Below are positions 2,694-25,541 of a stretch of 25,563 bases of DNA, in pieces. Source of the stretch: a virus. A program made the position numbers and the translations under genes. The notes under the pieces are model-generated. The model did not search any database and had not been told where the DNA came from. It was given only the letters and a program-made list of their open reading frames with translations. The DNA lies in the IMG/VR virus record IMGVR_UViG_3300045988_005808, positions 1 to 25,563 of that record; one strand, given 5' to 3'. Numbering within the stretch: the stretch's first letter is position 1; every line of letters begins with the position of its first letter.

Positions 2694-2882
2694 ATGAATT
2701 ATGAAGAAAGAATTAAGGAGTTAATTTCAAAAAACAATAAACTAGGAAGGACAAACATTGAGCTTAATCAGACTTTAAAAGAAAGAAATGCAACAATTCA
2801 TAATCAAACACATGAAATTAATAGATTAAAAAATAAAGTTGGCGAATTAGAAAATAGATTAATGAGGATGTATACATCATGA
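2694..2882 (+). CDS. Small coiled-coil protein, unknown function
   Basis: ATG at 2694 follows AGAGGGGG. Heptad-like sequence throughout. The track start at 2649 has no SD. Confidence 0.6.
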   Translation: MNYEERIKELISKNNKLGRTNIELNQTLKERNATIHNQTHEINRLKNKVGELENRLMRMYTS

Positions 2883-3205
2883 GTACATACGAAGATGTTA
2901 AACGACACTTCTTGTGTGAATGTAAATCATACACATATTATGAGCAAAAGATAGCAGAGCTACAAAGGGAAGAAGCAATTTATCCTTTAAAAGTCGAGCT
3001 ATTCTTAGCCCATGCAGATTATGCAAGAAGAATGAACTATGTAAAAGACAAATTAAGCCAACTTGATGATACTACTCGAGCTATGATTGAGTATAGATAT
3101 ATAAAGGGATTCAGTGCAGAAAAAACATCTAATATTGTAGGTTATGCACGAGAAGAGATTCCAAGAAAAATAAATAAAAATTTGAAAAAAGTGCTCACAA
3201 TGTGA
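2879..3205 (+). CDS. Late-gene transcriptional activator, ArpU/RinA-like (sigma-70 region-4-like HTH)
   Basis: ATGA overlap start. C-terminal RAMIEYRYIKGFSAEKTSNIVGYAREEIPRKINKNLKKV looks like a region-4 HTH. Its position just upstream of the packaging module is typical of such activators. Confidence 0.55.
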   Translation: MSTYEDVKRHFLCECKSYTYYEQKIAELQREEAIYPLKVELFLAHADYARRMNYVKDKLSQLDDTTRAMIEYRYIKGFSAEKTSNIVGYAREEIPRKINKNLKKVLTM

Positions 3206-3214
3206 GCGTTTTTT
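3186..3214 (+). terminator. Hairpin with flanking A- and T-tracts (bidirectional-type intrinsic terminator), copy 1 of a 20-nt repeat
   Basis: GCTCA(3193-3197)/TGAGC(3203-3207) stem, extendable by G.U and A-T pairs, followed by TTTTTT (3209-3214). It includes the stop codon of the activator gene. Confidence 0.6.
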
Positions 3215-3231
3215 CATGTAATAATTGTTTT

Positions 3232-3307
3232 AGCAGGATAGAGCAGTAGTAGCTCACTAGCCTTATTAGCTAGAGGTCGAACGGTGCAATTCCTTCTCCT
3301 GCAACCA
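3232..3307 (+). tRNA. tRNA-like gene, anticodon UAU (reads AUA), with initiator-tRNA-like architecture
   Basis: Hand-folded cloverleaf. Acceptor 3232-3238/3297-3303 has 6 bp plus an A1xA72 mismatch. U8 A9. D stem GAGC 3241-3244/GCTC 3252-3255 gives A11:U24. Anticodon stem CTAGC 3257-3261/GCTAG 3269-3273, loop CTTATTA, anticodon TAT at 3264-3266. Variable loop AGGTC. T arm GAA(C)GG 3279-3284/CCTTC 3292-3296, loop TGCAATT. A73 and encoded CCA at 3304-3307. Deviations: bulged C in the T stem, G55, U37, short D loop without GG. Confidence 0.6.
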
Positions 3308-3314
3308 TGTTTAC

Positions 3315-3381
3315 AAAGCCTATCGGTGAGTCCTTCCCAAATTAGATATTAAATACCAACAATGGCATGCCGTTAGGCTTT
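3315..3381 (+). ncRNA. Long stem-loop downstream of the tRNA-like gene (unassigned structured RNA)
   Basis: AAAGCCTATCGG (3315-3326) pairs with CCGTTAGGCTTT (3370-3381). That is 11 of 12 positions paired, enclosing 43 nt. No SD or plausible ORF. Confidence 0.35.
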
Positions 3382-3389
3382 GATATATT

Positions 3390-3415
3390 ACCGAGCGTTT
3401 GTCTCGGTTCTTTTA
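3390..3415 (+). terminator. Intrinsic terminator closing the tRNA/structured-RNA unit
   Basis: ACCGAG (3390-3395)/CTCGGT (3403-3408), 7-nt loop, then TCTTTT. Confidence 0.65.
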
Positions 3416-3432
3416 ATAACAAGGAGGAGAAT

Positions 3433-4532: not shown

Positions 4533-5866
4533 TGACTAGAACGATTCCTTGGGGGAAATTTTCAGATAAACACAAGAATTATATTAAGACCGCCCTAAAT
4601 TACAAACAAAGTGTAGCAGAAGGAGCGGTACGAAGTGGTAAAACGATTGACCACTGTATAATCTTTTCAATGTATTTAGAAACATGTGAAGATAAAATAC
4701 ATTTAGCGAGTGGGTCAAGCTTACCGAATGCAAAATTAAATATAGGCGATTGCAATGGTTTCGGCTTAGAACATATCTTTCGCGGAAGGTGTCGTTGGGG
4801 TAAATACAAATCAAACGAAGCACTATTTGTTCAAACAAAGACAGGCGAAAAGATAGTGATATTTACAGGTGGTGGAAAGTCCGATTCATATAAGAGCATA
4901 TTAGGTAACTCATATGGTGGATGGATTGCCACCGAAATAAATGAGCATTACGATTGTGAGGATTCTAGAACAAGCTTTATCAAGGTAGCAATGGCAAGAC
5001 AGATTGCAAGCGTACATCCGTTTACATTATGGGATTTAAACCCATCAAATCCAAACGCAGACATTTATAAGAATTACATAGATAAATTCATGGGGTTAGA
5101 TTGGTACAGATATGAGCACTTCAATATTTTTGACAACGCTACAATGAGCCAAGAAAGAATTGAAGAAACCAAAAACAAATATGAAATGAATTCAGTATGG
5201 TACAAGAGAGATATTCTAGGGGAAAGAATGGTTGCCGAAGGACTTGTATTCCCTTATTTTGCAAATGACTGTAAACCTTACCTATTCAAATATCAGAGTC
5301 TAAAAGAAAAGATGAAGAAAGAAGGGAAAAGGTTTAGTCATTTAATTATAGGCGTTGACTTTGGAGACAATGGCTCGAAATATTCATGGCACTTAACAGG
5401 GTTCACAAATGATTGGGATTATATGTGGGCACTTGATGAAGGAGACATGGAAAAGTCAAATGCAATAGACGCAACAAAGTTCTGCAAAGCATTTGCAAGG
5501 TTCTATAAGCGTTGTATTGAATGTTACGGATATGTAGAATGGATATTTCCGGACAGTGCTTCTAACACGTTGATAAACACGCTTAGAGCTTATTTTTGCG
5601 CCGAAGGATTAGACGGAAGTATAATTGCACCGGTTAAGAAAAATGAGCTTACAGACCGTCCTATAACAGTTGATAGCTTACTTGTTACAGGTAGGCTAAA
5701 GATAGAAGAACATTGTAAGAATTTGATAAACGCATTGAGCGAATTGGTATGGGATGAAAAGAAAGATATTCCAAAAGATGATAACGTAAACAATATCAAT
5801 GATGATTGGGATTCGTTCTGCTATACATTTATCACACATAGCAAATATATAGATTTAAGGAGGTAA
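4529..5866 (+). CDS. Terminase large subunit (PBSX/XtmB-like)
   Basis: Walker A GAVRSGKT near the N-terminus. Length and position match. ATGA overlap with TerS. Confidence 0.95.
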   Translation: MMTRTIPWGKFSDKHKNYIKTALNYKQSVAEGAVRSGKTIDHCIIFSMYLETCEDKIHLASGSSLPNAKLNIGDCNGFGLEHIFRGRCRWGKYKSNEALFVQTKTGEKIVIFTGGGKSDSYKSILGNSYGGWIATEINEHYDCEDSRTSFIKVAMARQIASVHPFTLWDLNPSNPNADIYKNYIDKFMGLDWYRYEHFNIFDNATMSQERIEETKNKYEMNSVWYKRDILGERMVAEGLVFPYFANDCKPYLFKYQSLKEKMKKEGKRFSHLIIGVDFGDNGSKYSWHLTGFTNDWDYMWALDEGDMEKSNAIDATKFCKAFARFYKRCIECYGYVEWIFPDSASNTLINTLRAYFCAEGLDGSIIAPVKKNELTDRPITVDSLLVTGRLKIEEHCKNLINALSELVWDEKKDIPKDDNVNNINDDWDSFCYTFITHSKYIDLRR

Positions 5867-5869
5867 GAA

Positions 5870-7273
5870 ATAGAAACATCTAACATACGTAATCCGTGGT
5901 TTCAGAATTACCTAAACGATAGAGGGTATTATGTAGACACAAACGCAATTCAAATCATTGAGTTGTGCAACAAATGGTATACAAATACCGAAACAGAATT
6001 TCATACGGCATACACATTAAACAATGAGGAATACACATTGGATAAGACAGACTTTGCAAAGCGTTTATGTGAGGATGACGCAAACCTTATTGAAATCCTA
6101 GATATAAACGCTACAGAGGATAGTGCTACAAATGACATTATTTCAGACATCCTAGCAAAGAATAGGTTTGACGTAATGTATAGGAAACAAGCTGAGCAAA
6201 TGTCCGCAAACGGTACGGTAGGAGCTTATGTTACGATATCAAATGCCGAGATTTACGAAGATGGTTCATTTAGCGGAGGAGAAATCAAAATCAACTATTG
6301 TGATTCAATGAATATCCTTCCACTAACTGTTATTAATGACGAAATTGTGGAAGTAGCTTTCGTTGGAGTAAATTATGAAAAACTTAAGAAAGTATACGTG
6401 ATGGTCATGTTCTTAAAAGGACAAGATGAAAGATATACTGCGGAAACACATTACTTTAAAGAAACAGGCAAAGAAATAAAAGACCGTGCTCAAATTGTTC
6501 GATTAGATGTGGTTAAACCGTTTGCAATTATGAGAAATGCAAAGGTAAACAATTTACAAATGCAAGGTTACGGCTTGCCAAAGATTTGGAGTGCAATTGC
6601 TCCACTAAAGACAATTGATTTAACCATGACAATGTGGAATAGGGACTTGTTAAAATCGGATAAAATCGTTCTTGTGAATGAAACATTAATGCAGAAAGAC
6701 AAGGATGGAAATATTAAGATGAATCCACAAATGAAAAAGATATTTGTTCAATTAGGTAGGGATAAGCTTCCGGAAGAAAAAGCTTTATGGCAGGAATACA
6801 ATCCAACAGTTAGGACGGCAGAGGTTGTTCAATCACTAGAAACGGCGTTGAGTATTCTATCAATGATGTTTGGATTTGGTACAAAGAAATACACCTTTGA
6901 AAGTGGAAGAATTGTAACTGCAACAGAATATATCGGCGAAAACCAAGACGCAATGAAGGAAGTAAACTCACAACGTAAAGAATCTACTGCATATATTCAA
7001 GATATTATTCAAGCGATAGCATACTTCTACGAATTAACACAGGGCAGAAAGCTTAATATCAATCCATTAGACATTGCTATTGATTACGATGATACATATA
7101 TCGAGGATAAACAAAGCACTGCGCAGGCGTTAAGAAATGACGCACTTACATTTGATATTCCAAGATTAAAGATTATGTACTTTATGAAGCAATACGGCTT
7201 TACCGAAGAAGAAGCAACGGAATTATTAAATGAAGAAATTCAAGATGATGGAGAGGGGGATGACGAAGAATAG
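5870..7273 (+). CDS. Portal protein (SPP1 gp6-like); ATA start
   Basis: Size and position after TerL. AAGGAGG (5857-5863) sits 6 nt before the in-frame ATA at 5870. The frame is open from 5867. The first canonical start (TTG 5963) is 31 codons downstream without an SD. Confidence 0.85.
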   Translation: METSNIRNPWFQNYLNDRGYYVDTNAIQIIELCNKWYTNTETEFHTAYTLNNEEYTLDKTDFAKRLCEDDANLIEILDINATEDSATNDIISDILAKNRFDVMYRKQAEQMSANGTVGAYVTISNAEIYEDGSFSGGEIKINYCDSMNILPLTVINDEIVEVAFVGVNYEKLKKVYVMVMFLKGQDERYTAETHYFKETGKEIKDRAQIVRLDVVKPFAIMRNAKVNNLQMQGYGLPKIWSAIAPLKTIDLTMTMWNRDLLKSDKIVLVNETLMQKDKDGNIKMNPQMKKIFVQLGRDKLPEEKALWQEYNPTVRTAEVVQSLETALSILSMMFGFGTKKYTFESGRIVTATEYIGENQDAMKEVNSQRKESTAYIQDIIQAIAYFYELTQGRKLNINPLDIAIDYDDTYIEDKQSTAQALRNDALTFDIPRLKIMYFMKQYGFTEEEATELLNEEIQDDGEGDDEE

Positions 7274-8082
7274 CAACTACATATTTTCCATTCGTCTCAA
7301 GAAATGGCGACAGATTAGTACTATATGACGCTTTTAGAAGATTATTCTCAAGCTACTTCACAAATGGTGTGTTCGTAGATGATTCTAGTTCGGACCATTT
7401 AAGAGTTGAGAAAGCTCAAGGCTTAACATTAACAGTTAAGGCAGGAAGAGCAAATATTAATGGAGCATTCTATTGGCAGAAAGATGACGAAACCATCACA
7501 CTAGAAAAGAATAGTGCTACTAAAAGCTACAATATTATTCTTAGATTGAATGATAATGACGCATACAGAAACATTGCCTTAGTAGCAAGTGATATTAATG
7601 ATGGAATCACAAGAAGTGATTCTATTTACGATTTAGTATTGGCTACGGTTACAGTAACAGGAAACGCAAGTGAAGTTAAAGGTTCGGATATTACTGATAC
7701 AAGATTAGATTCTACACGTTGTGGAGCAGTTACAAGTGCTATTAAGAGTGTACAATCGTTGGATTTATTTACTCAAGTTACTGAGTTGTTCAAGGAAATT
7801 AAGGCTCAGAATGAATCTGAAATGAACGCAAATAGAACAGAGTTCAACGATTGGTTTGAAACTGTAAAAGATACGCTAGACGCAAATACGGCAGGAAAAC
7901 TTTCTAACAGAATTTCAAACATTGAAAAGATGATTATGGAGAACCATTTCACTACGATTCTATTAACAGAAGATGGAACACTAGTAGATGAGAATGGCCA
8001 TGAGATTCTAGCAGATTGGGCGTATGAAGTAGCGAGTGGAGAAGTCGGCACGGATTGGACATATAAAGTCAAGGAGGGATAG
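7270..8082 (+). CDS. Fibre / receptor-binding-type structural protein; ATA start
   Basis: From ATA 7270 the N-terminus reads MATTYFPFVSRNGDRLVLYDAFRRLFSSYFTNGVF. This is the remembered Y-x-PF...GDR-x-Y...F...NGV motif of Bacillota phage fibre proteins. GGAGAGGGGGA lies upstream. The first canonical start (GTG 7369) would remove that motif. Confidence 0.7.
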   Translation: MATTYFPFVSRNGDRLVLYDAFRRLFSSYFTNGVFVDDSSSDHLRVEKAQGLTLTVKAGRANINGAFYWQKDDETITLEKNSATKSYNIILRLNDNDAYRNIALVASDINDGITRSDSIYDLVLATVTVTGNASEVKGSDITDTRLDSTRCGAVTSAIKSVQSLDLFTQVTELFKEIKAQNESEMNANRTEFNDWFETVKDTLDANTAGKLSNRISNIEKMIMENHFTTILLTEDGTLVDENGHEILADWAYEVASGEVGTDWTYKVKEG

Positions 8083-8085
8083 AGA

Positions 8086-8967
8086 ATAGCAGGAAAACAA
8101 GTAACAGAATTAGACGCATTACCTAGCTTTACAGATACAAGCTTATTGCCTGTACATAATGGCGCAGGATTGAAAAAAGGATTATTATCGCAACTAGCGA
8201 ATTACTTAGGAAATAAATTTAGTAATCCGAATTTATTGATTAATCCGGATTTTAAAATTAATCAAAGAGGAGCTACAAACTACGAAAGTAATTCCGGTGC
8301 ATCTGTGAATACGTATTCAGTTGATAGATGGAGTTTATATAGGCATAAATTAACGGTTAATTCTGATAAATCAATTACATTAGCGAATCCATCATCTAGC
8401 GAAGGAGCATTTTCTCAAATCTTAGAGGACGCAGTCGAGGGCGACGTAACTATTCAAATTTATGTAGTAGATGTTAGTGGCTCTGCTTCGGTATTAGTAA
8501 TGAATTCAGACGGTAGGACAGTTGTGGACGTAGGAAATTTAAAGAAGGGTTTAAATGTATTCCGTTACAGTCAAGGATTAAAAAAAATTTATATCAAAGT
8601 CCTAAATGGAACAATAACTTTGAAATATGCAAAAGTAGAGCAAGGTACAGTGGCAACCCCATTTATTGCTCCTAATCGTGCAGATGAATTAGTTAAATGT
8701 TGCAGATTCTTTCAATCGTTTCAAGTATTGTATTCGACATATGGTGTAGCAAATCAGCATTATTATCAAAAGCTTCCACTTGTAACACTTTTCAGAAGCA
8801 ATCCTACGGTATCTATAACAGAACAGTACATGTATAATGTTAGTTCAAAGGCTATTCAATGGAAAACAGACGGTGGAACAGGATGGCTTAATTTAGATTT
8901 AGTTGCTACTAACGGCTCTCAAACAGTATGTCAAATGATTTGCGCATGCGACGCAGAAATTTATTAG
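8086..8967 (+). CDS. Fibre / receptor-binding-type protein; ATA start
   Basis: AAGGAGGG (8071-8078) sits 7 nt before ATA 8086. The N-terminus AGKQVTELDALPSFTDTSLLPVHNGAGLKKGLLSQL is a typical fibre attachment motif. NLLINPDFKINQRG...YSVDRW follows. TTG 8146 would truncate it by 20 codons. Confidence 0.7.
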   Translation: MAGKQVTELDALPSFTDTSLLPVHNGAGLKKGLLSQLANYLGNKFSNPNLLINPDFKINQRGATNYESNSGASVNTYSVDRWSLYRHKLTVNSDKSITLANPSSSEGAFSQILEDAVEGDVTIQIYVVDVSGSASVLVMNSDGRTVVDVGNLKKGLNVFRYSQGLKKIYIKVLNGTITLKYAKVEQGTVATPFIAPNRADELVKCCRFFQSFQVLYSTYGVANQHYYQKLPLVTLFRSNPTVSITEQYMYNVSSKAIQWKTDGGTGWLNLDLVATNGSQTVCQMICACDAEIY

Positions 8968-8976
8968 GAGGTAGCT

Positions 8977-9324
8977 ATGGAGAACGAATATAAAGTATAC
9001 GCATCTTTGCAAGATGGATACATCACATCTATTAATTCAGAAATCTTTTTATCACAAGAAGAAATTCAAACAATGACAGAAATTGACAACGGACAAGGCG
9101 ATAAATATGCACACGCACAAAGTCAATATCTAGAAAAAGGATTAGTTGATGAACAAGGGCGATATAACTACAAATATGTAGAAGGTAAAGTAGTTGAGAT
9201 TGCAGAAGCAGAAAAGCCTACAATTGAAGAACCAAAAGCAGTACCAACCGAGCAAGAGAAGATTAATGCACAATTAATGCTACAAATTGCTCAATTAAAA
9301 GTTCAATTGAATGGGGTGAAGTAG
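8977..9324 (+). CDS. Hypothetical fibre-module accessory protein
   Basis: ATG after AGGAGG. No assignable domain. Lies between the fibre genes and the XkdX-like ORF. Confidence 0.65.
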   Translation: MENEYKVYASLQDGYITSINSEIFLSQEEIQTMTEIDNGQGDKYAHAQSQYLEKGLVDEQGRYNYKYVEGKVVEIAEAEKPTIEEPKAVPTEQEKINAQLMLQIAQLKVQLNGVK

Positions 9325-9325
9325 T

Positions 9326-9445
9326 ATGAACTATGAATTAATTAAATCGTATTATGAATTAGGCTTATTTACAAAGAGCGATTTAGAAATGTTTGCTTCT
9401 ATCGGTTGGATTACAGAAGCACAGAGAAAAGAAATAATTAAATAA
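9326..9445 (+). CDS. XkdX-like small protein (39 aa)
   Basis: MNYELIKSYYELGLFTKSDLEMFASIGWITEAQRKEIIK resembles the XkdX family pattern (Y..g.yt..dl..fv..gwIT..qy.eI). Below the ORF-track size cutoff. Confidence 0.65.
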   Translation: MNYELIKSYYELGLFTKSDLEMFASIGWITEAQRKEIIK

Positions 9446-9461
9446 GCTTTAAAAGCGTTTT

Positions 9462-9485
9462 AAAGGGCTTGAATGCCCTTTTTCT
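9462..9485 (+). terminator. Intrinsic terminator after the fibre module
   Basis: AAAGGGC (9462-9468)/GCCCTTT (9475-9481) with a T-run. Preceded by a second inverted repeat, CTTTAAAA-gcg-TTTTAAAG. Confidence 0.7.
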
Positions 9486-9501
9486 GTAGGAGGGCATATA
9501 A

Positions 9502-10686
9502 ATGTTAAGCGAAGAAGAACAAAGAGAGCAAGAGCGTAAAAAAAGGCAAGAAGAAAGAAAACAAGAACGTCTAAAAAAGCAAATTGAGAAAAGAAGAAAG
9601 CTTGAAGAAAGAGAAAGAAAAAGTGTAAAGCGTGCTAGTGTGTTTGAATTAGGAATGATGATATTCGTATCTAATAAAATTCGTGAAGTTTTAGAAAAAT
9701 CCACCGAAGAAAACGCGAAATTCAATGATATATTAGCAAAATCACTCGTGGATTTGCGTAAATTTGCGAAAAAAGAATCAAAAAGCCTAAAAAAAGATGT
9801 AATCAAGGAATCAAAAAAGGATTTTGAAGAAAATAAGAATGGAACATTAGAATTAATTCAAGAAGCAACTAAAAAAAAGATGGATGGAAGCCTTGCAAAG
9901 CATATTGCGTATGTGAATCCACAAAAGGACACTGCAAAGCGTTGGAAAAAATACATCAAAACTACTGCGAACACGTATGCAATCGGCAAAGATAAATTAC
10001 CAGTTTTCTTTACGAAATTTGTGCAAGAAGAAGTTAAAAAAGTAGTAGGTGGTAAATGTACGATTGATGATTCATGCAGAAAAGCAATCTCTAAATTGGC
10101 AGATAGTGGCGTGAAAATTGTGGAATATGATACAGGAGTTAAAAGAAATGTGGACGTATGGGTAAGGCAACAAATGCAGTACGCAGAAAAGGAATCATCA
10201 CAAGAAATTAACAATAAATGTGCAAAAGATATGGGAGTTACTGTATTCGAGTTTGACGCTCACGCAAACGCACGTCCAAGTCATAAGAAATGGCAAGGAA
10301 AACGCTATGACACGCAAGGGAAACTATATCCTAGCTTGTTTCAGTTGACGCATGGAGAAGAAAAAGACTATGGATGTAGACACTTTGCACAACCTGTATG
10401 GGATATTGATATGCCTTATGCCTACACAAAAGAGCAGTTAAAGAATATTGATACAAAGCCTTTCACATTCCAAGGAAAGAAATATGAAGGATATGAAGCT
10501 AGGCAGTATCAAAGAGAATTAGAAAGAAACATCAGAGCATTAAAAAGAGAAGTAATCTTATTGGACAATCAAGGACTAGGCAGTACAGAAGCCAAAATCA
10601 AACTAAAACACGCAAATGCAACGTATAAAGCTTTCAGTTCTGAAATGGGAGACAGAGTTCACAACGATAGGCTTAGAATCGGCTAA
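9502..10686 (+). CDS. Head morphogenesis protein (minor capsid protein 2 / Mu F, SPP1 gp7-like)
   Basis: The DAHANARPSHKKWQGKRYD motif is typical of the Mu F/minor-capsid-2 family. Highly charged KE-rich N-terminus. Confidence 0.8.
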   Translation: MLSEEEQREQERKKRQEERKQERLKKQIEKRRKLEERERKSVKRASVFELGMMIFVSNKIREVLEKSTEENAKFNDILAKSLVDLRKFAKKESKSLKKDVIKESKKDFEENKNGTLELIQEATKKKMDGSLAKHIAYVNPQKDTAKRWKKYIKTTANTYAIGKDKLPVFFTKFVQEEVKKVVGGKCTIDDSCRKAISKLADSGVKIVEYDTGVKRNVDVWVRQQMQYAEKESSQEINNKCAKDMGVTVFEFDAHANARPSHKKWQGKRYDTQGKLYPSLFQLTHGEEKDYGCRHFAQPVWDIDMPYAYTKEQLKNIDTKPFTFQGKKYEGYEARQYQRELERNIRALKREVILLDNQGLGSTEAKIKLKHANATYKAFSSEMGDRVHNDRLRIG

Positions 10687-10704
10687 AACGCTCACATTGT
10701 GAGC
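10685..10704 (-). repeat. Inverted copy of the 20-nt hairpin element GCTCACAATGTGAGCGTTTT
   Basis: The reverse complement of 10685-10704 is identical to 3193-3212. The T-tract is on the minus strand here. Confidence 0.8.
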
Positions 10705-10782
10705 TATTATTCAAGCTAAAATATAGTTAGCCAAAGCCATACCGGAGAAGATTCGGTTTATAAATAACTTTAGGAGGGCAAA

Positions 10783-11367: not shown

Positions 11368-11381
11368 GGAGGATTTAATTA

Positions 11382-12251
11382 ATACCAAATGAAATTGCAT
11401 TAGCTAAAACGTATGTCTCAAATTTGGATGAGGTATATAAGTTGGCTTCAGTAACAGGTGATTTAAATGCAGACGCTACAATGGTTAGAGCCGGAGCAAA
11501 CGCAAAAGAAATCATCTATCCACAAATTTCTGTTAAAGGTTTAGGGAACTACGATAGAAACAGTGGTTATACAGGCAACTCAGTTAAGTTAGAATGGAAA
11601 ACCGCTACATTCGACTATGACAGAGGTACTAAAATCTCAGTCGATACACAAGATAACGCGGAATCAATGAATATTGCATTCGGCATGGCAGGAGCAGAAT
11701 TAATGCGTACAAAGGTTGCGCCGGAAGCGGACGCCTACACATTCGCCAAAATTGCAGGCACAACAGGAATCACAAAGGTTTCAGAAGATTATACAGGTGC
11801 AGAAGAGTTCTTGAGCGCATTGTTAACGGCTATCACTAAAATGGATGAGGATGAAGTTCCTAGCGAACAACGTATCTTGTATTCAACACCAACATTATTA
11901 AATAGCGTTAAGGCGTTGGACACTTACAAATCTCGTGAAGCTTTACAAGGATTTGCAAAGGTTGTTCCTGTACCTGCTAGCCGTTTCTATACAAAAATCA
12001 AATTGTTGAGTGGAAAAGATACAGAGTTAGAAGGCGGATACGAAAAAGCGGAGGATGGACACGTAATCAACTTCTTGATTGTTCATAAGCCTGCCGTTAT
12101 GAAATGGGATAAACACACTGTTTCAAATGTGATTCCTGCAAGCAATAACATTGAATCAGATTCAGATGTATTGAAATATCGTAAATATGGAATCGTTGAT
12201 GTATACCAAAATAAGGTAGCAGGTATTTACTTATCTGCTAGTACTAAGTAA
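11382..12251 (+). CDS. Major capsid protein; ATA start
   Basis: Position after the scaffold gene, and size. AAGGAGGA (11366-11373) sits 8 nt before the in-frame ATA at 11382. The frame opens at 11379. The only canonical start (TTG 11424) is 14 codons downstream without an SD. Confidence 0.8.
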   Translation: MPNEIALAKTYVSNLDEVYKLASVTGDLNADATMVRAGANAKEIIYPQISVKGLGNYDRNSGYTGNSVKLEWKTATFDYDRGTKISVDTQDNAESMNIAFGMAGAELMRTKVAPEADAYTFAKIAGTTGITKVSEDYTGAEEFLSALLTAITKMDEDEVPSEQRILYSTPTLLNSVKALDTYKSREALQGFAKVVPVPASRFYTKIKLLSGKDTELEGGYEKAEDGHVINFLIVHKPAVMKWDKHTVSNVIPASNNIESDSDVLKYRKYGIVDVYQNKVAGIYLSASTK

Positions 12252-12724: not shown

Positions 12725-13140
12725 TAGGATTCTTTGAAGATTCAATTACACTTGTAAATCACTACTATGACACATTGACAAGAGAAGATAGGTTTCAAGC
12801 TTCTATTCTTGATAAATGTATGTGGAGACAATCTACTATAAGGACTACAAATGGTAATATTCTGAGCATAGCCACATCCACAAATATTACTATTCTATAT
12901 CGTGATGGATATGTTGAACCTTACGTATATGCAAAGCTTTCAAATGATGAAAAGCAAAAGCACTTCACATTAAATACAGATAAAACAGATTTCGTATTCT
13001 TTGGAGAAGTGAAAGAAGATTTATCTAGTATTAAAGCAATCAATGAAGCAAAGAAGAAATACAAATGGACAACAATCCAAAGCGTTACAGATTGTACGAA
13101 TGTCGATATGTTGAAGCATTGGGAGGTTGTCGGTCAATAG
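12721..13140 (+). CDS. Head closure / connector protein
   Basis: ATGA overlap start. Assigned by synteny only. Confidence 0.5.
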   Translation: MIGFFEDSITLVNHYYDTLTREDRFQASILDKCMWRQSTIRTTNGNILSIATSTNITILYRDGYVEPYVYAKLSNDEKQKHFTLNTDKTDFVFFGEVKEDLSSIKAINEAKKKYKWTTIQSVTDCTNVDMLKHWEVVGQ

Positions 13141-13142
13141 GA

Positions 13143-13499
13143 ATGAAAGTCAAACTTGATGTTGAATCAATTCCCCAAATTAAACAATCAAGAGGACTTC
13201 AAGAACGTGGACGAGTTCAACAAATGATTGACTCCGAAGTCATTAGATTTATGACCCCTTATACGCCTAGAGACACAGGAGCATTAATTAACTCGGCTAC
13301 AAGAAATACTCAAATCGGAAGTGGATTAGTAAAGCAAGGTGGACCAAGTGCCCCTTATGCTAGACGGTGGTATTACAACAAAGAGGGTGCTCATTTCGTA
13401 GGAGGTAAAACAGACCATTGGTTTGAAAAAGCTATGCGAAATGGTGGAGCAGAAACAATCTTAAAAAAAGCACAACAAATGATAGGAGACGGAGAATGA
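13143..13499 (+). CDS. HK97 gp10-like tail-completion/neck protein
   Basis: FMTPYTPRDTGALINS...GGPSAPYARRWYY resembles the gp10 family pattern (P.dTG.L..s...pYa...). The start could instead be the in-frame ATA at 13137, 11 nt after GGGAGG. Confidence 0.6.
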   Translation: MKVKLDVESIPQIKQSRGLQERGRVQQMIDSEVIRFMTPYTPRDTGALINSATRNTQIGSGLVKQGGPSAPYARRWYYNKEGAHFVGGKTDHWFEKAMRNGGAETILKKAQQMIGDGE

Positions 13500-13915
13500 C
13501 AGTATCAAAGGCATTGATTCAGTGGCTTTACGGCTACGGAAATATACAGATAGATGAACGCATTGAAACAGATGTTTTAGCGCAACAAATTATCTCTTAT
13601 GCGTTGTATAAAGAGCCTAACGCTATTGTAGATACATACATTGACGGCACTCAAATGCGTACAGAATACTACACGTTTCTAGCACGTAGGAATACACAAA
13701 TTGAATCAGAAAGGCAAGACAACAATGTTTTTCTAGAAGAATTAGAAAATTGGATTGATGAAAAGAATTTAAACGGGGAATTACCACAACTAGACGGAAA
13801 CAAATATTGTGATGATGTTTCCGTTTCAAGTGGTCTATATCTATACACGAATGAGGATAGTCAAGCAGTATATGCGTTAACTATTCAAATTAAATACAGG
13901 AAGGAGCTTAATTAA
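13496..13915 (+). CDS. Tail terminator / minor capsid-type neck protein
   Basis: ATGA overlap start. Position immediately before the major tail gene. Confidence 0.5.
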   Translation: MTVSKALIQWLYGYGNIQIDERIETDVLAQQIISYALYKEPNAIVDTYIDGTQMRTEYYTFLARRNTQIESERQDNNVFLEELENWIDEKNLNGELPQLDGNKYCDDVSVSSGLYLYTNEDSQAVYALTIQIKYRKELN

Positions 13916-14421
13916 TAACAACTCAAGGAACCGAAGTAACTACAGGGCAGACAGTCAAGAAGTATATGATTGGATTGTTCTTGCAAATGGGAGAAGCTTA
14001 TAAGCGAATTAAGAAATCTACAACTTTAGATATTTCATTTAACAGTGAAACTGAAACGTATGATTTTATCGCAGATAAGAACCCAACAGAATCATTAAAG
14101 AGTTATTCACCTCAAATCTCACAGGATTTGACTATGATTAAAGGTGAAGATGATTTTGAATATATTTACGAACAAATGATGAAATCCGTACCAAACAACG
14201 AAGAAGTAAATACAAAAGCTTTACTTGTATTTATGTTTGACGGAGACAAAACTAAAGGCTATAAAGCATGGGAGGTTGACGCTAAATTGATTTTCGATAC
14301 ATTAAGCGGTGTCGATTCAAAAATCAACTTCAATATTAACTTTGCAAGCGATATTCGCGTCGGTGTTGCAAAGGTAGCAGATGGAGCAGTAACCTTCACA
14401 GAAGGCACATCAGAAGTATAA
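13915..14421 (+). CDS. Major tail protein; SD-favoured ATA start
   Basis: AAGGAG (13901-13906) sits 8 nt before ATA 13915, which overlaps the upstream TAA (TAATA). An in-frame ATG at 13966 lacks an SD and is the alternative start. Confidence 0.65.
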   Translation: MTTQGTEVTTGQTVKKYMIGLFLQMGEAYKRIKKSTTLDISFNSETETYDFIADKNPTESLKSYSPQISQDLTMIKGEDDFEYIYEQMMKSVPNNEEVNTKALLVFMFDGDKTKGYKAWEVDAKLIFDTLSGVDSKINFNINFASDIRVGVAKVADGAVTFTEGTSEV

Positions 14422-15382: not shown

Positions 15383-17962
15383 ATATCAGACGGAACATTA
15401 AAGTTTGATACAAAGATTGATACAAGTGGTCTTGAAAATGGTATTAAATCTGTAAGTGATATATCGAATAAAGCTACAAACGCTATTAAAGATACTTCAA
15501 ATGCGATAGATAAGTTAGGCTCTGATGGTTCAAAAGCACCACCAAAGATCACTGATGAATTAAGAAAGTTAAATGGTGAACAAAAGAATACACAGACAGA
15601 AACTACAGAAACAGGCTCTAAATTTGATGTATTTAAACAAGTAGGAAGTAGTGCGTTAGAATCAATTCAAGGCGGATTTGATGGATTACTAGAGAAGATT
15701 CAGAATATTAGTCCGGAAGCAACTACAATCACTGAAACTTTAACAGGATTAGGCGTAGGAGGTGTTGTAGGCGTTACTGCCGTAGCAGGAGCTATTGGTG
15801 GCATGGCATTGGCTATTAAAACAGGTGTTAACCAAGCCGTTGAGCTAGACGACGCTATGGCTAAGTTTCAAGCTCAAACAGGTGCTTCAAGCAGTGAGAT
15901 GAATAAGTTTAAAAACATTGCTCGTGATGTTTGGTCTAACAATTTCGGTTCAGATGTTTCAGATGTTGCCGATATGATGGGCAGAGTCAAACAACAAATG
16001 CAAGGCATAAGTGATGTTGATTTAAAGAACGTGACCGAGGATTTATTAACTTTAAGAGATACATTCGATATGGATGAGAATGAAACTCTTAGAGGTGCTC
16101 AACAATTAATGAAGCAGTTCGGGATCACTTCTCAAGAAGCTTTCGACCTTATGGCTACAGGTGCTCAGAATGGTTTAAACAAATCGGATGAGTTAGGCGA
16201 CAACATTTCAGAATACTCCGGTAAATTCGCACAAGCAGGATATTCGGCAGATGAATATTTCCAATTAATGCAGAATGGATTAGATGGTGGAGCTTATAAC
16301 CTTGATAAAGTAAATGACGCAATCAACGAAGTTACCACAAGGTTAGTTGATGGAACTATTGAAGGAGCTTTGGATAGTTTTGATACAAAAACACAAGATG
16401 TATTTAAAGCTTGGCAAGAAGGAAGAGCCACTCAGAAAGATGTTGTAAATGCGATTGTAGAAGATATTTCAAAGACTACAAATGAGCAAGAAAAGTTGAA
16501 TAAAGCAAGTATTGCATTCGGTACGATGGGCGAGGACTTCAACGCCGGATTCATTCAGTCATTAACTACCGTAGGTGATAAATATAAAGATGTAGAAGGA
16601 GCAATGGATAAAGTCAAAGAAATTGCAAATGGTGGCTTAAAGAACGCTTTAAGTGGATTAGGGCGTGCATTTCTTGATTCATTTACTCCAATAGGCGAAC
16701 TTATTACCCCTATTCTTGCAGGTATCATCGGATTAATTACAGTAGCCATACAAGGCATTCAACAAGGATTTGCTAAAGTTGGCGATGTAATTTCAAGTGT
16801 ATTAAGTAAGATTGATACAAGTGGAATTACAGAATTGACAAGTCAAGTTTCTAACGTATTAGCTCCTGCGTTTAAAGAAGTTAAAAAAGCTATTGATGAA
16901 ATGAAATCGGCTCTTGAACCTATCGCAAAAGATATATTAAGCAAGATTATTGATGTAATTCAAAACATTGTGAATCAAGCTCAAAAGATTCTAACTGTAG
17001 TAGGACCACCGATACTTTCTGTTTTAAAGAAAATCATTTCAACGGTTTCGGGATTTATGCCTTTAATCACATCTATATTGGCTATTGTCGGAAGTGTTGT
17101 AAGTGGAGTTATTTCATTTATAAATATGGTAGTCACATATATCGGAACGGCAATCGCAACGGCAATGGGATTTATCATGCCTATAGTTCAAATCATTTCT
17201 GCAATCGTAGCAAATATTTGGTCTATTATCTTAACAGTAGCAACAAATATTTGGAGTAAGATTAGCGGAGTAATTACTGCGATTATTGGGTTCGTAAGTA
17301 ATTTATTTAAGACGGTTTCGGACATCATAAACAATATTTGGAGTAAGATTCAAGATACAATGAACAGAGTCAGGGACAAGGTAAAAGGTATCATTGATAA
17401 TATCAATAAAAATTTCAATAATATCAAGTCTACGGTTTCAGATGTATTTAGTGGCATTTGGTCTAAAATTCAAGGGGTAATGGATAAGGTAGGGAATAAA
17501 ATTTCAAATGTTTTACGAGGAATACAAAATTCATGGAATGGTTTAAAAGGGTTTGTGAGTGGCGTATTCGGTGGAATTGAAGGAGCAGTTAATTCATTAG
17601 TTGGAAGTGTAAAGGGAATGGTAAATGGTGTTATCGGTGGCATTAATGGCGCAATCGGTATCATTAATAAGATTCCAGGCGTACATATTGGAAGGATTCC
17701 AAGACTAGAGCGTGGTGGTGTATTGAAGCGTGGTCAAATCGGTTTGTTGGAAGGTAATGGTGCAGAAGCAGTTGTACCATTAGAAAGAAATAAAGCATGG
17801 ATTCGTGCCGTAGCTAAAGATATGGCTCAAATCATGCCTAGTGTAACAACAAATAACAACGGACAGACTATCAACTTCTACAATAAAGCGCAAAGTCCGG
17901 ATGAAATTGCTAGAATGTTGCGAATGCAAGCAAGATATGGATATGGAGGTGTAATTCAATAG
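15383..17962 (+). CDS. Tape measure protein; ATA start
   Basis: The frame is open with no stop from ATA 15383 (checked codon by codon), which is the first codon after an in-frame TGA. It is preceded by AAGGAGG (15365-15371). The N-terminus MSDGTLKFDTKIDTSGLENGIK is TMP-like. The first canonical start (ATG 15803) is 140 codons downstream. Internal hydrophobic and IWSKI repeats. Confidence 0.85.
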   Translation: MSDGTLKFDTKIDTSGLENGIKSVSDISNKATNAIKDTSNAIDKLGSDGSKAPPKITDELRKLNGEQKNTQTETTETGSKFDVFKQVGSSALESIQGGFDGLLEKIQNISPEATTITETLTGLGVGGVVGVTAVAGAIGGMALAIKTGVNQAVELDDAMAKFQAQTGASSSEMNKFKNIARDVWSNNFGSDVSDVADMMGRVKQQMQGISDVDLKNVTEDLLTLRDTFDMDENETLRGAQQLMKQFGITSQEAFDLMATGAQNGLNKSDELGDNISEYSGKFAQAGYSADEYFQLMQNGLDGGAYNLDKVNDAINEVTTRLVDGTIEGALDSFDTKTQDVFKAWQEGRATQKDVVNAIVEDISKTTNEQEKLNKASIAFGTMGEDFNAGFIQSLTTVGDKYKDVEGAMDKVKEIANGGLKNALSGLGRAFLDSFTPIGELITPILAGIIGLITVAIQGIQQGFAKVGDVISSVLSKIDTSGITELTSQVSNVLAPAFKEVKKAIDEMKSALEPIAKDILSKIIDVIQNIVNQAQKILTVVGPPILSVLKKIISTVSGFMPLITSILAIVGSVVSGVISFINMVVTYIGTAIATAMGFIMPIVQIISAIVANIWSIILTVATNIWSKISGVITAIIGFVSNLFKTVSDIINNIWSKIQDTMNRVRDKVKGIIDNINKNFNNIKSTVSDVFSGIWSKIQGVMDKVGNKISNVLRGIQNSWNGLKGFVSGVFGGIEGAVNSLVGSVKGMVNGVIGGINGAIGIINKIPGVHIGRIPRLERGGVLKRGQIGLLEGNGAEAVVPLERNKAWIRAVAKDMAQIMPSVTTNNNGQTINFYNKAQSPDEIARMLRMQARYGYGGVIQ

Positions 17963-18831
17963 ATATTAACAAAGTAAGAGTTATCGTCCGTAGGGATGAT
18001 GGCAAAGAATTTGAAATTGACAATCAAAAAAGATGGAAGATTCCTTCTAGTAGTGGTTTAGATGGATTTGATTATGTAGTGCCTTCATATACAACACAAG
18101 ACAATGCATTCGGAAACGGTGCAAGATTAATCGGTTCACGTATTCCAACGAAAGAAAGAAGCGTGAAAGCTACCTTTAAAGGTTCACTAGAAGAAAAAAG
18201 AGAAGAAAGGGAGAAGCTACGACGCTTCTTCCAATATTCTCATGTGTTTGATGTGATAGTTGAGTATATGGGAGAAAAGAAATATTGCAGAGGTCGTTTA
18301 TATGCGTATAGCTTGCCTACAGTTAACATCTACAAAGATTTAGAGCTTAACTTTACAATTCTATGCACACAACCTTTATTGCTTTCATTTGATGATTTCG
18401 CAAGGAATATCGCAGAAATCGGTGAAGGTTTAGCATTCAACTTTGAAATACCGGAAACAGGTGTGAACTTTGGAACATTTACATTCGCCAGAGAAATCTA
18501 TATTGATAATCAAGGCGATACAGAAACATACTGTAGAGCCGTTATTGAAGTATTTGGAGAGGTGACAAATCCGAAACTATTCAACAAAGATAAATATATT
18601 CGTGTATTAGATACGCTACACAATGGTGATTTATTAGAAATTGATTTAGTTTCTGAGCCTATTTCGATTAAAAAGAATGGTGTGAATTGTATCGGTAAAG
18701 TTGATAGAACATCATCATTCAACGATATGACGATTCAGTTAGGTGAGAATATCATAGGATATACGGCAGACAGTGGAGATACGAACCTAGCTTGCACGGT
18801 TTACTACAATGAAAGGTATTTAGGTTTATAA
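17959..18831 (+). CDS. Distal tail protein (Dit, Sipho_tail-like); ATA start
   Basis: GGAGG (17945-17949) sits 9 nt before ATA 17959, which overlaps the TMP TAG (ATAG). The first canonical start (GTG 18079) is 40 codons downstream without an SD. Confidence 0.75.
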   Translation: MDINKVRVIVRRDDGKEFEIDNQKRWKIPSSSGLDGFDYVVPSYTTQDNAFGNGARLIGSRIPTKERSVKATFKGSLEEKREEREKLRRFFQYSHVFDVIVEYMGEKKYCRGRLYAYSLPTVNIYKDLELNFTILCTQPLLLSFDDFARNIAEIGEGLAFNFEIPETGVNFGTFTFAREIYIDNQGDTETYCRAVIEVFGEVTNPKLFNKDKYIRVLDTLHNGDLLEIDLVSEPISIKKNGVNCIGKVDRTSSFNDMTIQLGENIIGYTADSGDTNLACTVYYNERYLGL

Positions 18832-19858: not shown

Positions 19859-20362
19859 ATAGAAAAGAACAATGGAGGATTTAAACAAATAACAAGAAGT
19901 ATGTATTTTCTAGATAAGATTAACGCAATGGGTGGCGTAGCCGTTGCCGTATTAACATATGTTTTAGGTGAACATTGGTATTTATTTGCATTCTTCTTAT
20001 TTATGAATGTAGTGGATTACATTACAGGGTGCATGAAGTCGGCGATTAATCACAAAATCAATAGCAATAAAGGATGGATTGGAGTCCTTAAAAAGCTAGG
20101 CTATTGGATTATGATTGTAGTTGCGTTCACATTCAGTGCATTCTTGGTGGAGATTGGAAAAATGTTAGGAATTGATTTCCATGTAACAACATTATTAGGA
20201 TGGTTCGTATTGGCTTCTTTATGCATTAATGAAGTGCGTAGTATTATTGAGAACCTTGTACAATGTGGATATAGTGTGCCTAGCACATTAACTAAAGGAT
20301 TAGAAGTAGCAGATAAACTCATTAACGAAGAACAAGACAATGACGAATCAAGTACCTTGTGA
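19859..20362 (+). CDS. Holin (phage_holin_4_1 / TcdE-like); SD-favoured ATA start
   Basis: Three or four hydrophobic helices. DYITGCMKS...SNKGWIGVLKKLGYWIMIVVA matches the remembered family motif. The GTG at 19850 is part of the SD (AAGGAGTG). The in-frame ATA at 19859 is 8 nt after it. Confidence 0.75.
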   Translation: MEKNNGGFKQITRSMYFLDKINAMGGVAVAVLTYVLGEHWYLFAFFLFMNVVDYITGCMKSAINHKINSNKGWIGVLKKLGYWIMIVVAFTFSAFLVEIGKMLGIDFHVTTLLGWFVLASLCINEVRSIIENLVQCGYSVPSTLTKGLEVADKLINEEQDNDESSTL

Positions 20363-20655: not shown

Positions 20656-21414
20656 ATAAATTATCAAAATTTCAAAAACGCCGTATTAGGCAAAGCTTTC
20701 GATGTTGATGGCTTTTATGGTGCTCAGTGTTGGGACGGATTCGCAAAGTATATGATTGATTTAGGATATAGAGCAATTTATTGTACTACGAGCCAATTTG
20801 CAAAAGACATTTGGAACAATCGAAAAGCAAATGGTATCTTAAACTACTGTAATGAAGTCACAGTTATGCAAGCCGGAGATATTGCAGTATTTAAAGAAGT
20901 AGCATTATGGACTCCATACTCACACGTGGCAATTTTTGACCACGACGCAGGCGGTGGATACGGTTGGTTCTTAGGGCAGAATCAAGGCGGAAAGAATGGA
21001 GCATTTACACTCTGTAAATTGCCATACAGTGCCACTTTCGATACTGCTTTTAGACCTAAATGTTTCGCAAATGTACAAACTGCTAAGCCTAAACCACAAT
21101 CAAAAGAAGCGATTGACCAAATCTTACACGTAGGCAGCTATGTAACATCTGTACAAATGAAGATTGGTAATCAAGGATTGAAGAAGATTAATAACGATAC
21201 TTGCGCCTATTTATCACAATTAGGTGGTTGGTTCCCTTTATCAATGATTACGAAAGTTCGTGGTTCGGACGGATATAATGACAACGTGTTGCACACTACA
21301 AATGCGGTAGTATATGTGGATAGAGTAAGAGTTGACGAAATTAACATTTCAAAGAACCTTGCCAAAATCGGCGGAATTTGGGTAAGTGCTACACCTTTAA
21401 TTGAAGTAGCATAA
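20656..21414 (+). CDS. Endolysin: N-terminal CHAP domain plus C-terminal SH3b-like binding domain; SD-favoured ATA start
   Basis: FDVDGFYGAQCWDGFAKYM (catalytic Cys) and YSHVAIF (His) are CHAP signatures. AAAGGAGGA (20638-20646) sits 9 nt before the in-frame ATA at 20656. The TTG at 20629 lies upstream of the SD. Confidence 0.85.
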   Translation: MNYQNFKNAVLGKAFDVDGFYGAQCWDGFAKYMIDLGYRAIYCTTSQFAKDIWNNRKANGILNYCNEVTVMQAGDIAVFKEVALWTPYSHVAIFDHDAGGGYGWFLGQNQGGKNGAFTLCKLPYSATFDTAFRPKCFANVQTAKPKPQSKEAIDQILHVGSYVTSVQMKIGNQGLKKINNDTCAYLSQLGGWFPLSMITKVRGSDGYNDNVLHTTNAVVYVDRVRVDEINISKNLAKIGGIWVSATPLIEVA

Positions 21415-25175: not shown

Positions 25176-25541
25176 ATAGCAGAACCAAAGAAATCGTATT
25201 GCGCAATAATACCTGCAGAAGTTCGATATGATGAAGAATTGCCACCAAACGCAAAACTATTGTATGGAGAAATTACATCATTATGTAATGAAAAAGGATA
25301 TTGTTGGGCAACAAATCAATATTTCGCAGATTTATATAAAGTTTCTAAAATTACAGTAAGTAGATGGATTAGCACTCTTAATAAAAAAGGATATATTTCA
25401 GTAGAAGCACTATATAAAGAAGGAACAAAAGAAATTATCGGAAGACATTTGTATATTGTTAATACCCTATTAACAAAAATGTTAATAGGTATATACAAAA
25501 ATGTTAATACCCTATTAACAAAAATGTTAATACCCTATTAA
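25176..25541 (+). CDS. Replication initiator / replisome organiser-like HTH protein; SD-favoured ATA start
   Basis: LPPNAKLLYGEITSLCNEKGYCWATNQYFADLYKVSKITVSRWISTLNKKGYISVE is an HTH_36/DnaD-like initiator N-terminal domain. The GTG at 25167 is inside the SD (AGGGGGTG). ATA 25176 follows 8 nt later. The 3' end runs into the iterons. Confidence 0.65.
   Translation: MAEPKKSYCAIIPAEVRYDEELPPNAKLLYGEITSLCNEKGYCWATNQYFADLYKVSKITVSRWISTLNKKGYISVEALYKEGTKEIIGRHLYIVNTLLTKMLIGIYKNVNTLLTKMLIPY

Follow-up and report, generated by a model that had tools for sequence, protein, structure and literature searches.

To our knowledge, every natural initiator tRNA has the anticodon CAU, and translation starts other than AUG are read by this same tRNA with a mismatch. 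Whether phages always respect this rule is the question raised by a tRNA gene in a 25,563-nt stretch of viral DNA (hereinafter the window; positions 1 to 25,563 of the IMG/VR virus record IMGVR_UViG_3300045988_005808), in which the anticodon UAU is combined with hallmarks of bacterial tRNA-fMet. The sequence-only reading of the window proposed that this is an initiator tRNA retargeted from AUG to AUA, and the proposal is now supported both by comparison of the tRNA family and by ATA start codons that are preceded by Shine-Dalgarno (SD) sequences. We consider it likely that the gene encodes a phage-made initiator tRNA that derives from bacterial tRNA-fMet through the change of the anticodon from CAU to UAU and allows translation to start at AUA.

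The tRNA gene and its family

3232..3307, + strand: initiator-like tRNA with anticodon UAU (ARAGORN, Rfam, minimum free energy fold, covariation in the family, identity to E. coli tRNA-fMet)
3264-3266, + strand: anticodon UAU, tRNA positions 34-36, followed by U37 (sequence)

ARAGORN, one of the programs recommended in the sequence-only reading, makes a single tRNA call in the window, at 3232-3307 on the plus strand, with the anticodon tat and the label tRNA-Ile. The Rfam model RF00005 matches 3232-3304 with 50.2 bits (E 3.4e-8), above its gathering score of 29, and marks 1:72 as a non-standard pair. Together with the sequence itself, these two matches bear out the 76-nt cloverleaf with an encoded CCA end and the anticodon UAU that had been described. 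The minimum free energy (MFE) fold reproduces the cloverleaf exactly, including the open 1:72 and the single bulged C of the T stem, with a z-score of only -1.3; as related phages conserve the gene and show compensatory changes in it (see below), the tRNA is more than a chance fold.

The acceptor stem AGCAGGA/UCCUGCA yields A1.A72, G2:C71 and C3:G70 and is followed by A73 and the encoded CCA. The D stem GAGC/GCUC yields A11:U24 and encloses the loop AGUAGUA; the anticodon stem CUAGC/GCUAG yields A29:U41, G30:C40 and C31:G39; the anticodon loop CUUAUUA contains UAU and U37; the variable loop is AGGUC; and the T arm GAA(C)GG-UGCAAUU-CCUUC places G at position 55. Each of the initiator-like features listed previously (A1xA72, G2:C71, C3:G70, A11:U24, A73-CCA and the variable loop AGGUC) can thus be read in the sequence, and the caveats attached to them, namely the absence of the three G:C pairs of the anticodon stem, the bulged C, G55, U37 and a D loop without GG, are equally real. 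The 1:72 mismatch, along with 2:71 and 3:70, is the major determinant for Fmt (PMC5389676).

A megablast search of 50,697 GenBank phages with the tRNA region detected no close relative. The large terminase has about 50 relatives in IMG/VR (43-98% identity), and a scan of IMG/VR with a pattern built on the D arm and the anticodon loop produced matches in 39 contigs, all within one TerL family; about 30 further copies were found in human-gut metagenome contigs. The tRNA is present in each family contig that covers the region (about 40 gut-phage contigs). Altogether, we identified 12 distinct tRNA sequences which belong to three types:

A type (that of the window): acceptor stem AGCAGGA.../...UCCUGCA; 1:72 A.A; aberrant elbow
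G type: acceptor stem GGCAGAG.../...CUCUGCA; 1:72 G.A; canonical elbow
C type: acceptor stem CGCAAGG.../...CCUUGCA; 1:72 C.A; canonical elbow

Most of the A-type copies are overlooked by ARAGORN and detected by the pattern scan and Rfam (48.8 bits for the relatives L001 and L041). The twelfth variant, from the further family contig L041, has a deviating variable loop and the same A1, A72 and anticodon loop; it was seen later than the other 11, on which the covariation alignment is based.

In this alignment, two-sided changes occur in six stem pairs (5:68, 6:67, 7:66, 27:43, 28:42 and 29:41), and the fraction of paired cells is 94%, compared to 39-57% when the partners are slid. None of the 11 variants pairs 1:72, position 1 being A, G or C and never U. 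The sequence-only reading had made its proposal depend on this mismatch and on the tRNA not resembling tRNA-Ile, and identity to tRNA-Ile is indeed below that to tRNA-fMet (see below). G2:C71, C3:G70, A11:U24, G30:C40 and the loop CUUAUUA, including UAU and U37, are invariant, whereas 29:41 is either A:U or G:C and 31:39 is U.G in 10 of the 11 variants. The combination of covariation with invariant hallmarks implies that purifying selection maintains a working tRNA and, in particular, its initiator hallmarks. The remaining form of 31:39, C31:G39 (window positions 3261 and 3269), is found only in the variant of the window, which recurs in L099 and L136; the conserved pyrimidine-purine orientation of this pair is opposite to that of the G:C pair in normal initiators.

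The A type differs from the other two in the elbow. Its D loop AGUAGUA (3245-3251) has A where G18 is expected, its T loop UGCAA(A/U)U has G55 in place of U55, and its T stem (T arm 3279-3296) has six nucleotides on the 5' side and five on the 3' side, the extra base being variable (C, U or a GA rearrangement). A18 and G55 may form a compensating tertiary pair; the elbow is the contact site of IF3 on the initiator.

To place the scaffold among known tRNAs, the variants were globally aligned with the E. coli tRNA-fMet (a reference sequence that is 100% identical in all 5,426 genomes and has a median copy number of 4) and with metT, ileT, ileX, glnV and alaT; tRNA-Ile was represented by the two E. 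coli genes ileT and ileX. Across the family, identity to tRNA-fMet is 67-77%, compared to 52-64% for the Met, Ile1, Ile2, Gln and Ala tRNAs. Within this range, C-type and L006 variants reach 76-77%, against 56-60% to the Met and Ile elongators, with the C type by itself at 77% against 56-59%, and the more derived tRNA of the window still shows 67%, against 56-62% to elongators. Furthermore, E. coli metT, ileT and ileX have C11, compared to A11:U24 in all 11 family variants, and the BLAST neighbors among phage tRNAs are annotated as tRNA-Met or tRNA-fMet. Taken together, the alignments clearly point to descent from the tRNA-fMet family. The C-type variant, with C1.A72, G29:C41, G30:C40, GG in the D loop and the T loop TTCGATT, is essentially a canonical bacterial initiator with the substitutions C34U and A37U; the family as a whole departs from the canonical initiator by C34U, A37U, a change of 31:39 to U.G (C:G in the window) and, in most members, a change of 29:41 to A:U. 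Given that UAU replaces CAU in all variants and that the three G:C pairs 29:41, 30:40 and 31:39 are found together neither in the window nor elsewhere in the family, the phage tRNA does not count as a standard tRNA-fMet. The elongator tRNA-Ile(UAU), previously named as the main alternative, describes the family less well: the anticodon UAU is present, but a paired 1:72, Y11:R24, a purine at position 37 and relatedness to tRNA-Ile are all missing.

ATA start codons in the window and in related phages

In many long open reading frames (ORFs) on the plus strand of the window, a strong SD, typically AAGGAGG, follows the upstream stop codon and is itself followed 6-11 nt later by ATA, with the first ATG, GTG or TTG located far downstream. 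The commonest codon at 5-10 nt from such an SD and just after an in-frame stop is ATA (10 cases, compared to 7 for ATG). The resulting start map of 39 genes in the window includes 26 ATG, 11 ATA, 1 GTG and 1 TTG. The ATA starts are concentrated in the packaging-to-lysis genes (10 of 22, compared to 1 of 17 elsewhere; p 0.011), and only the DnaD-like gene at 25176 lies outside the virion and lysis module. The 11 genes are the following.

5870..7273, + strand: portal, ATA start (AAGGAGG, 6 nt, ATA); first ATG/GTG/TTG 31 codons on; ATA kept in about 55 copies of the locus
7270..8082, + strand: MuF-like head protein, ATA start that overlaps the portal stop as ATAG (conserved ATA, profile, overlap)
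8086..8967, + strand: structural gene with tail-fibre-like matches, ATA start; ATG at the same codon in most relatives
11382..12251, + strand: major head protein, ATA start; residues 3-288 match PHROG 422 positions 3-294 of 297
13137..13499, + strand: minor head/connector-like gene, probable ATA start that overlaps the upstream stop as ATAG (SD, conservation, overlap)
13915..14421, + strand: tail-module gene (PHROG 3099), ATA start in a TAATA overlap with the upstream stop; residues 10-167 match positions 4-169 of 171
15383..17962, + strand: tape measure, ATA start; first ATG 140 codons on; profile match from residue 7
17959..18831, + strand: distal tail protein (Dit), ATA start that overlaps the tape-measure stop as ATAG (SD, profile, overlap)
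19859..20362, + strand: holin-like gene, ATA start (AAGGAG, 8 nt, ATA; SD, profile)
20656..21414, + strand: endolysin (CHAP), ATA start; residue 2 matches profile position 5
25176..25541, + strand: DnaD-like replication initiator, ATA start; conserved GGAGGTGATTAGA-ATA; residue 6 matches profile position 1

Several of these starts can be checked against homologs. The portal starts with ATA also in G- and C-type phages, and the 44% identical portal of L096 has an SD-ATG at the position equivalent to the ATA start. For the head protein, the start at 7270 gains positions 8-44 of PHROG 1220, which are lost when translation is taken from the GTG at 7369. The ATA of the major head protein is kept in the 56% identical G-type phages and in the C type, that of the tape measure in a 62% identical relative, and residue 3 of the endolysin aligns with codon 4 of the characterized lysin of Streptococcus phage B30. 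The start at 13137 is less certain because there is an in-frame ATG at 13065, which has no SD. The clearest case of interchange is the gene at 8086, whose orthologs have ATA in 3 contexts and ATG in 15, with the same SD, flanks and following codons. Two other apparent ATG-to-ATA polymorphisms, at the genes 1501 and 2195, turned out to be alignment offsets of one to three codons, leaving 8086 as the only true swap.

Start/stop overlaps at ATA (three ATAG and one TAATA) mirror the usual ATGA and TAATG, and 7 of the 11 ATA starts have no such overlap. Inside genes of the window, ATA continues to serve as a regular codon for Ile (107 codons, 14 per 1000), i.e. only initiation is affected. The genes are open with the standard stop codons, and ATA is a sense codon at the starts, without stop recoding.

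The base that follows the start codon was recorded as well: ATAG is found at 7 of the 11 ATA starts (5870, 7270, 8086, 13137, 17959, 19859 and 25176), in three of which TAG is the upstream stop, and family-wide the commonest +4 base is G (21 of 32 contexts), contributed mostly by second codons of the form GCN or GAN.

Across the relatives, a strict definition of an ATA start was applied, with an SD, ATA no more than 15 codons after a stop, no canonical start within 7 codons and an ORF of at least 100 codons. The scan yielded 81 ATA starts in 399 kb of tRNA-carrying loci, where every strict match other than ATA is a codon adjoining an ATA start, and none in 77 kb from other phages and from terminase relatives that lack the tRNA. 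When all examined loci are counted, the family has 194 strict SD-ATA and 452 SD-ATG, compared to 1 and 40, respectively, outside the family. ATA at starts is kept in orthologs, including those of 56-62% identical relatives with different flanks. Near the UAU initiator-like tRNAs with A37 that are found outside the family (L103/L144, L113, L125/L140, L149/L150 and others), no SD-ATA starts were detected.

U37 is highly unusual for any tRNA. In the mRNAs, A immediately precedes the start codon in 31 of the 32 distinct ATA contexts, compared to 87 of 156 ATG contexts of the same phages (p 1.7e-6). The bias persists when contexts with a stop codon directly before ATA are removed (21 of 22; p 1.4e-4) and, approximately, at the level of gene families (14 of 15; p 0.002). 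For E. coli tRNA-fMet, pairing between position 37 and mRNA position -1 has been described, with the preferred -1 base changing to match in the A37U and A37G mutants (PMC10018350). By analogy, we infer that the phage tRNA would read a four-base signal, A-AUA, through a U37:A(-1) pair, which would compensate for a codon-anticodon helix that consists of A-U pairs only. U37, which would pair with A at -1, is better regarded as part of the design than as a defect.

Public gene calls are available for L099 and L100, ERR414247 human-gut assemblies of the same phage. In these, the portal is 411 or 436 aa long, compared to 467 aa, the major head protein 269 aa, compared to 289 aa, and there are gaps between genes. 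The public calls thus cut the ATA-start genes short, and protein databases accordingly hold N-terminally truncated versions.

Proposed mechanism and alternative explanations

The scenario that we favor, and consider reasonably probable in its full form, is natural orthogonal initiation, whereby the UAU initiator would read A-AUA, a start that the host initiator would use with an efficiency of about 1%, the virion and lysis genes and one replication gene would be translated only in the presence of the phage tRNA, and (formyl-)Ile would be the probable first residue. Judging from the flanking sequences, the tRNA would be transcribed as its own small unit between two terminators. Aminoacylation by a host synthetase is predicted, most likely by IleRS giving Ile, with Met being possible. 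Ile is the best guess because the anticodon dominates recognition by IleRS and MetRS and the latter needs C34, and A73 also points to Ile. The 1:72 mismatch, G2:C71, C3:G70 and A11:U24, all of which are present, would lead to formylation by the host Fmt and would also keep the tRNA off EF-Tu, so that there would be no competition at internal AUA (Ile) codons. IF2 would place the tRNA in the 30S P site, where U34-A35-U36 would pair fully with AUA and would accordingly be accepted by IF3, and U37, by analogy with position 37 of tRNA-fMet, would add a fourth pair with the A before ATA. Under this scenario, about 30% of the phage genes, mostly virion and lysis genes, would be efficiently translated only with the phage tRNA. 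Given that the normal initiator reads AUA at only 0.02-3% of AUG in E. coli (bioRxiv 10.1101/063800), which is far too low for capsid, portal and tape measure, the tRNA would make ATA a start codon private to the phage. Such a codon could serve to gate late or lethal genes, could provide independence from the host initiator pool or could confer resistance to nucleases that target tRNA-fMet.

Several observations weigh against this scenario. Efficient charging is not guaranteed because MetRS should be poor on UAU and the IleRS elements beyond the anticodon and A73 are absent. The elbow of the A type is abnormal, with no G18-G19, with G55 and with a bulged T stem in which the bulge varies; the failure of ARAGORN to find most A-type copies counts in the same direction. 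Only G30:C40 is invariant among the three G:C pairs of the anticodon stem. Natural initiators without the full set of three do exist (au/GC/gu; PMC5389676), with the orientation of 31:39 opposite to that in the phage family, and given this pyrimidine-purine pair, unlike those of the cited natural initiators, P-site selection may be weak or different. As both the tRNA and the ATA starts are limited to one clade, their association counts essentially as one evolutionary event. Finally, the A at -1 could have other causes, such as an AT-rich spacer or neighboring stop codons.

Could the tRNA instead be an ordinary elongator tRNA-Ile(UAU) that serves the internal AUA codons of an AT-rich phage, with the ATA starts unrelated to it? 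The ARAGORN label, the 107 internal AUA codons (14 per 1000) read as Ile and the fact that phage tRNAs matching phage codon usage are common would all fit. However, the 1:72 mismatch in each of the 11 variants disfavors EF-Tu binding by established knowledge, A11:U24 takes the place of the Y11:R24 of the E. coli elongators compared, U37 excludes t6A37, which ANN-decoding elongators carry, and identity to tRNA-Ile is 56-62%, compared to up to 77% to tRNA-fMet. Given that this explanation also leaves the ATA starts and the A at -1 unaccounted for, we consider it very unlikely. Counter-defense by a replacement or decoy initiator fares little differently and appears quite unlikely. In this case, the altered loop (U34, U37 and U31.G39) would resist nucleases of tRNA-fMet, for example of the VapC type, the tRNA would read AUG by U.G wobble as well as AUA, and the ATA starts would be a by-product. 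The changes in the anticodon loop are strictly conserved, evasion of anticodon nucleases through loop changes is known for phage tRNAs, and an unmodified U34 could wobble to G, but neither the conserved ATA starts in essential genes nor the ATG/ATA interchange at 8086 nor the ATA-specific A(-1) bias is predicted. No defense or toxin context turned up near the gene, although no search was aimed at such context. Moreover, evasion of nucleases is compatible with initiation at AUA as an added benefit, rather than being a true alternative.

Another possibility is that the host tRNA-fMet reads ATA weakly, perhaps with the help of translational coupling, and the tRNA is a decaying or neutral passenger copy with C34U. 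Low-level AUA initiation by the normal initiator is on record (bioRxiv 10.1101/063800), sporadic C34U initiator copies occur in unrelated genomes and metagenomes without a sign of ATA starts, and four of the ATA starts overlap the upstream stop. The other seven do not, however, and abundant capsid, portal and tape measure proteins would have to be made at the 0.02-3% efficiency in spite of strong SDs. Compensatory changes together with an invariant loop across phages whose terminases are 63-72% identical indicate purifying selection rather than decay, and the tRNA is kept in each family contig that covers the region. This makes a passenger copy highly improbable. A remnant of a phage attachment site (attP), i.e. 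a tRNA copy carried on account of integration into a host tRNA gene, has a probability close to negligible: although integration into tRNA genes, with part of the gene carried along, is common among temperate phages, this tRNA is full-length and has its own flanking terminators, is not located beside an integrase (none was seen in the window), precedes the packaging module in all three subtypes and has a U37 family pattern that is unmatched in 185,579 representative bacterial and archaeal genomes. Accordingly, the attachment-site reading was rejected on the context and the lack of a host counterpart, and the pseudogene reading on covariation and universal retention.

Comparison with known systems, host and surroundings of the gene

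With bacterial tRNA-fMet, the phage tRNA shares the 1:72 mismatch, G2:C71, C3:G70, A11:U24, A73-CCA, AGGUC and G30:C40. It differs in the anticodon (UAU instead of CAU), in U37 instead of A37, in one invariant G:C pair instead of three, in position 1, which may be A or G besides C, in the U.G or C:G pair at 31:39 and in the aberrant elbow of the A type, as well as in being phage-encoded and matched by ATA starts. Another phage-encoded initiator-like tRNA is the unannotated tRNA(CAU) of the temperate Streptococcus phage Javan59 (MK448817.1, 20081-20153; L098 6001-6073), with 68 bits in Rfam. Like the phage tRNA described here, it is located just upstream of the small terminase, has C1.A72 and A11:U24 and is followed by a terminator, and it is 77% identical to the C-type variant; in contrast, CAU and A37 are kept and the CCA is not encoded. 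No ATA starts were seen in the Javan59 genes. The same initiator-like tRNA gene is carried by Javan74. The Javan59-type tRNA(CAU) plausibly represents the ancestral state.

In engineered initiators (amber, tRNA-fMet(GAU) and i-tRNA(AAC), from the work of Varshney and RajBhandary and of Schulman), a changed anticodon reportedly moves initiation to the complementary codon. The amino acid of such anticodon-mutant initiators follows the new anticodon. These are laboratory constructs in E. coli, used for orthogonal initiation, whereas the phage system is apparently natural, involves ATA in about 30% of the genes and has U37 matched by A(-1). Among natural systems, a parallel is found in gut phages (crAss-like, Lak and others), in which suppressor tRNAs accompany stop-codon recoding of late genes. 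Both cases involve a phage tRNA with an altered anticodon, a readable codon concentrated in virion and lysis genes and late genes that likely depend on the phage tRNA, and in the window the special tRNA indeed co-occurs with ATA starts that are concentrated in late genes. The difference is that suppressors act in elongation on stop codons, whereas the UAU tRNA would act at initiation on a sense codon that remains Ile inside genes; no stop codon is read by a suppressor here. AUA is also read by tRNA-Ile2 with lysidine in CAU, by tRNA-Ile(UAU) of Mycoplasma mobile and by mitochondrial tRNA-Met with f5C34, the latter initiating at AUA. These tRNAs either are elongators or, in the case of tRNA-Met, serve both purposes with a modified CAU, and none is a dedicated UAU initiator. 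In the quadruplet pairing described for tRNA-fMet (PMC10018350), A37:U(-1) is a modest enhancer, whereas U37:A(-1) in the phages is inverted and nearly obligatory, as judged by statistics. A search of full-text literature, subscription journals not covered, yielded no natural initiator tRNA with an anticodon other than CAU and no systematic use of ATA starts in phages.

If the proposed function is correct, this tRNA would be the first initiator found in nature to break the CAU rule and would imply that a mobile element can reassign a start codon in nature, in parallel to stop recoding by suppressor tRNAs. It would also suggest a new layer of phage gene control, with late genes locked at initiation, a ready-made orthogonal pair of initiator and start codon for engineering, and a natural test case for the quadruplet model, in which tRNA position 37 interacts with mRNA position -1. 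On the practical side, standard gene callers mis-annotate these genomes, with portal, capsid, tape measure and lysin truncated or split, and annotation pipelines would need to allow ATA starts where such a tRNA is present.

With respect to the host, a scan of the 185,579 representative genomes with the family pattern, position 37 being left free, revealed no family member; its only matches were initiator copies that combine C34U with A37 and occur sporadically in unrelated bacteria. Contigs encoding related sequence come only from human-gut metagenomes. The endolysin neighbors are mostly from Streptococcus phages, with some from phages of Clostridium innocuum and Amedibacillus; as a pointer to the host, this resemblance is no more than suggestive.

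Initiator-scaffold tRNAs with UAU and A37 are scattered across unrelated contigs and genomes (L113, L132, L149/L150 and L092), for example that of an Arsenophonus endosymbiont, and two contigs, L103 (OGVJ01000174.1) and L144 (OGWF01001288.1), combine UAU and A37 with the Javan59-type acceptor stem. These sporadic tRNAs may be mutated gene copies or something else. A separate case is L140 (ERZ779669.22 NODE-22), a 95.8-kb unrelated phage-like contig from the human gut, which encodes a UAU initiator-scaffold tRNA with A37, three G:C pairs and C1.A72. Its tRNAs are located at 2767-2839 and 2848-2922 of the reverse complement, the neighbor being read by ARAGORN with a four-base anticodon 'tgaa', and the long genes at 4552-11722 of the reverse complement are full of in-frame TAG, as in a TAG-recoded phage. 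One ORF of 497 codons has ATA and no ATG, GTG or TTG in the first 50 codons, and SDs are not used in this contig. L140 may be a second, independent case of AUA initiation, in which the start codons lack the SD context.

In the window, the tRNA gene occupies a 227-nt intergenic gap with terminator-like hairpins at both ends. It had been placed between a late activator and the packaging genes. This description holds in part. The gene precedes the packaging module in all three subtypes; in the window, DUF6275 and a ParB-like nuclease come first, before small terminase, large terminase and portal, and the upstream ORF (2879-3205) has no more than a weak sigma-factor-like match (PHROG 1740, E 4.7e-4). 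The following signals flank the tRNA.

3193..3214, + strand: hairpin GCUCAC-AAU-GUGAGC followed by a T run (sequence, palindrome scan); kept in A-type relatives
3217..3225, + strand: extended -10-like element TGTAATAAT (relatives: TGCGATAAT), its end 6 nt before position 1 of the tRNA (sequence)
3390..3416, + strand: intrinsic terminator-like hairpin with a T run, 3' of the tRNA (terminator scan)

The hairpin at 3193-3214 is likely the terminator of the upstream sigma-like gene, which would set the tRNA apart as its own unit, and a hairpin like that at 3390-3416 is present 3' of the tRNA in relatives of all tRNA types. The element at 3217-3225 is a putative promoter of the tRNA; a sigma-70 scan that required a -35 element made no call there. 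Because the extended -10-like element ends 6 nt before position 1, transcription of the A-type gene may begin at A1, which may produce a leaderless tRNA without an RNase P step. The genes of the G and C types do not have this arrangement. The spacer of 125 nt that separates the tRNA from the DUF6275 gene (3308-3432) is conserved among A-type phages and contains a promoter-like ATGGCA, 16 nt, TATATT, with TG upstream, directly followed by the terminator hairpin.

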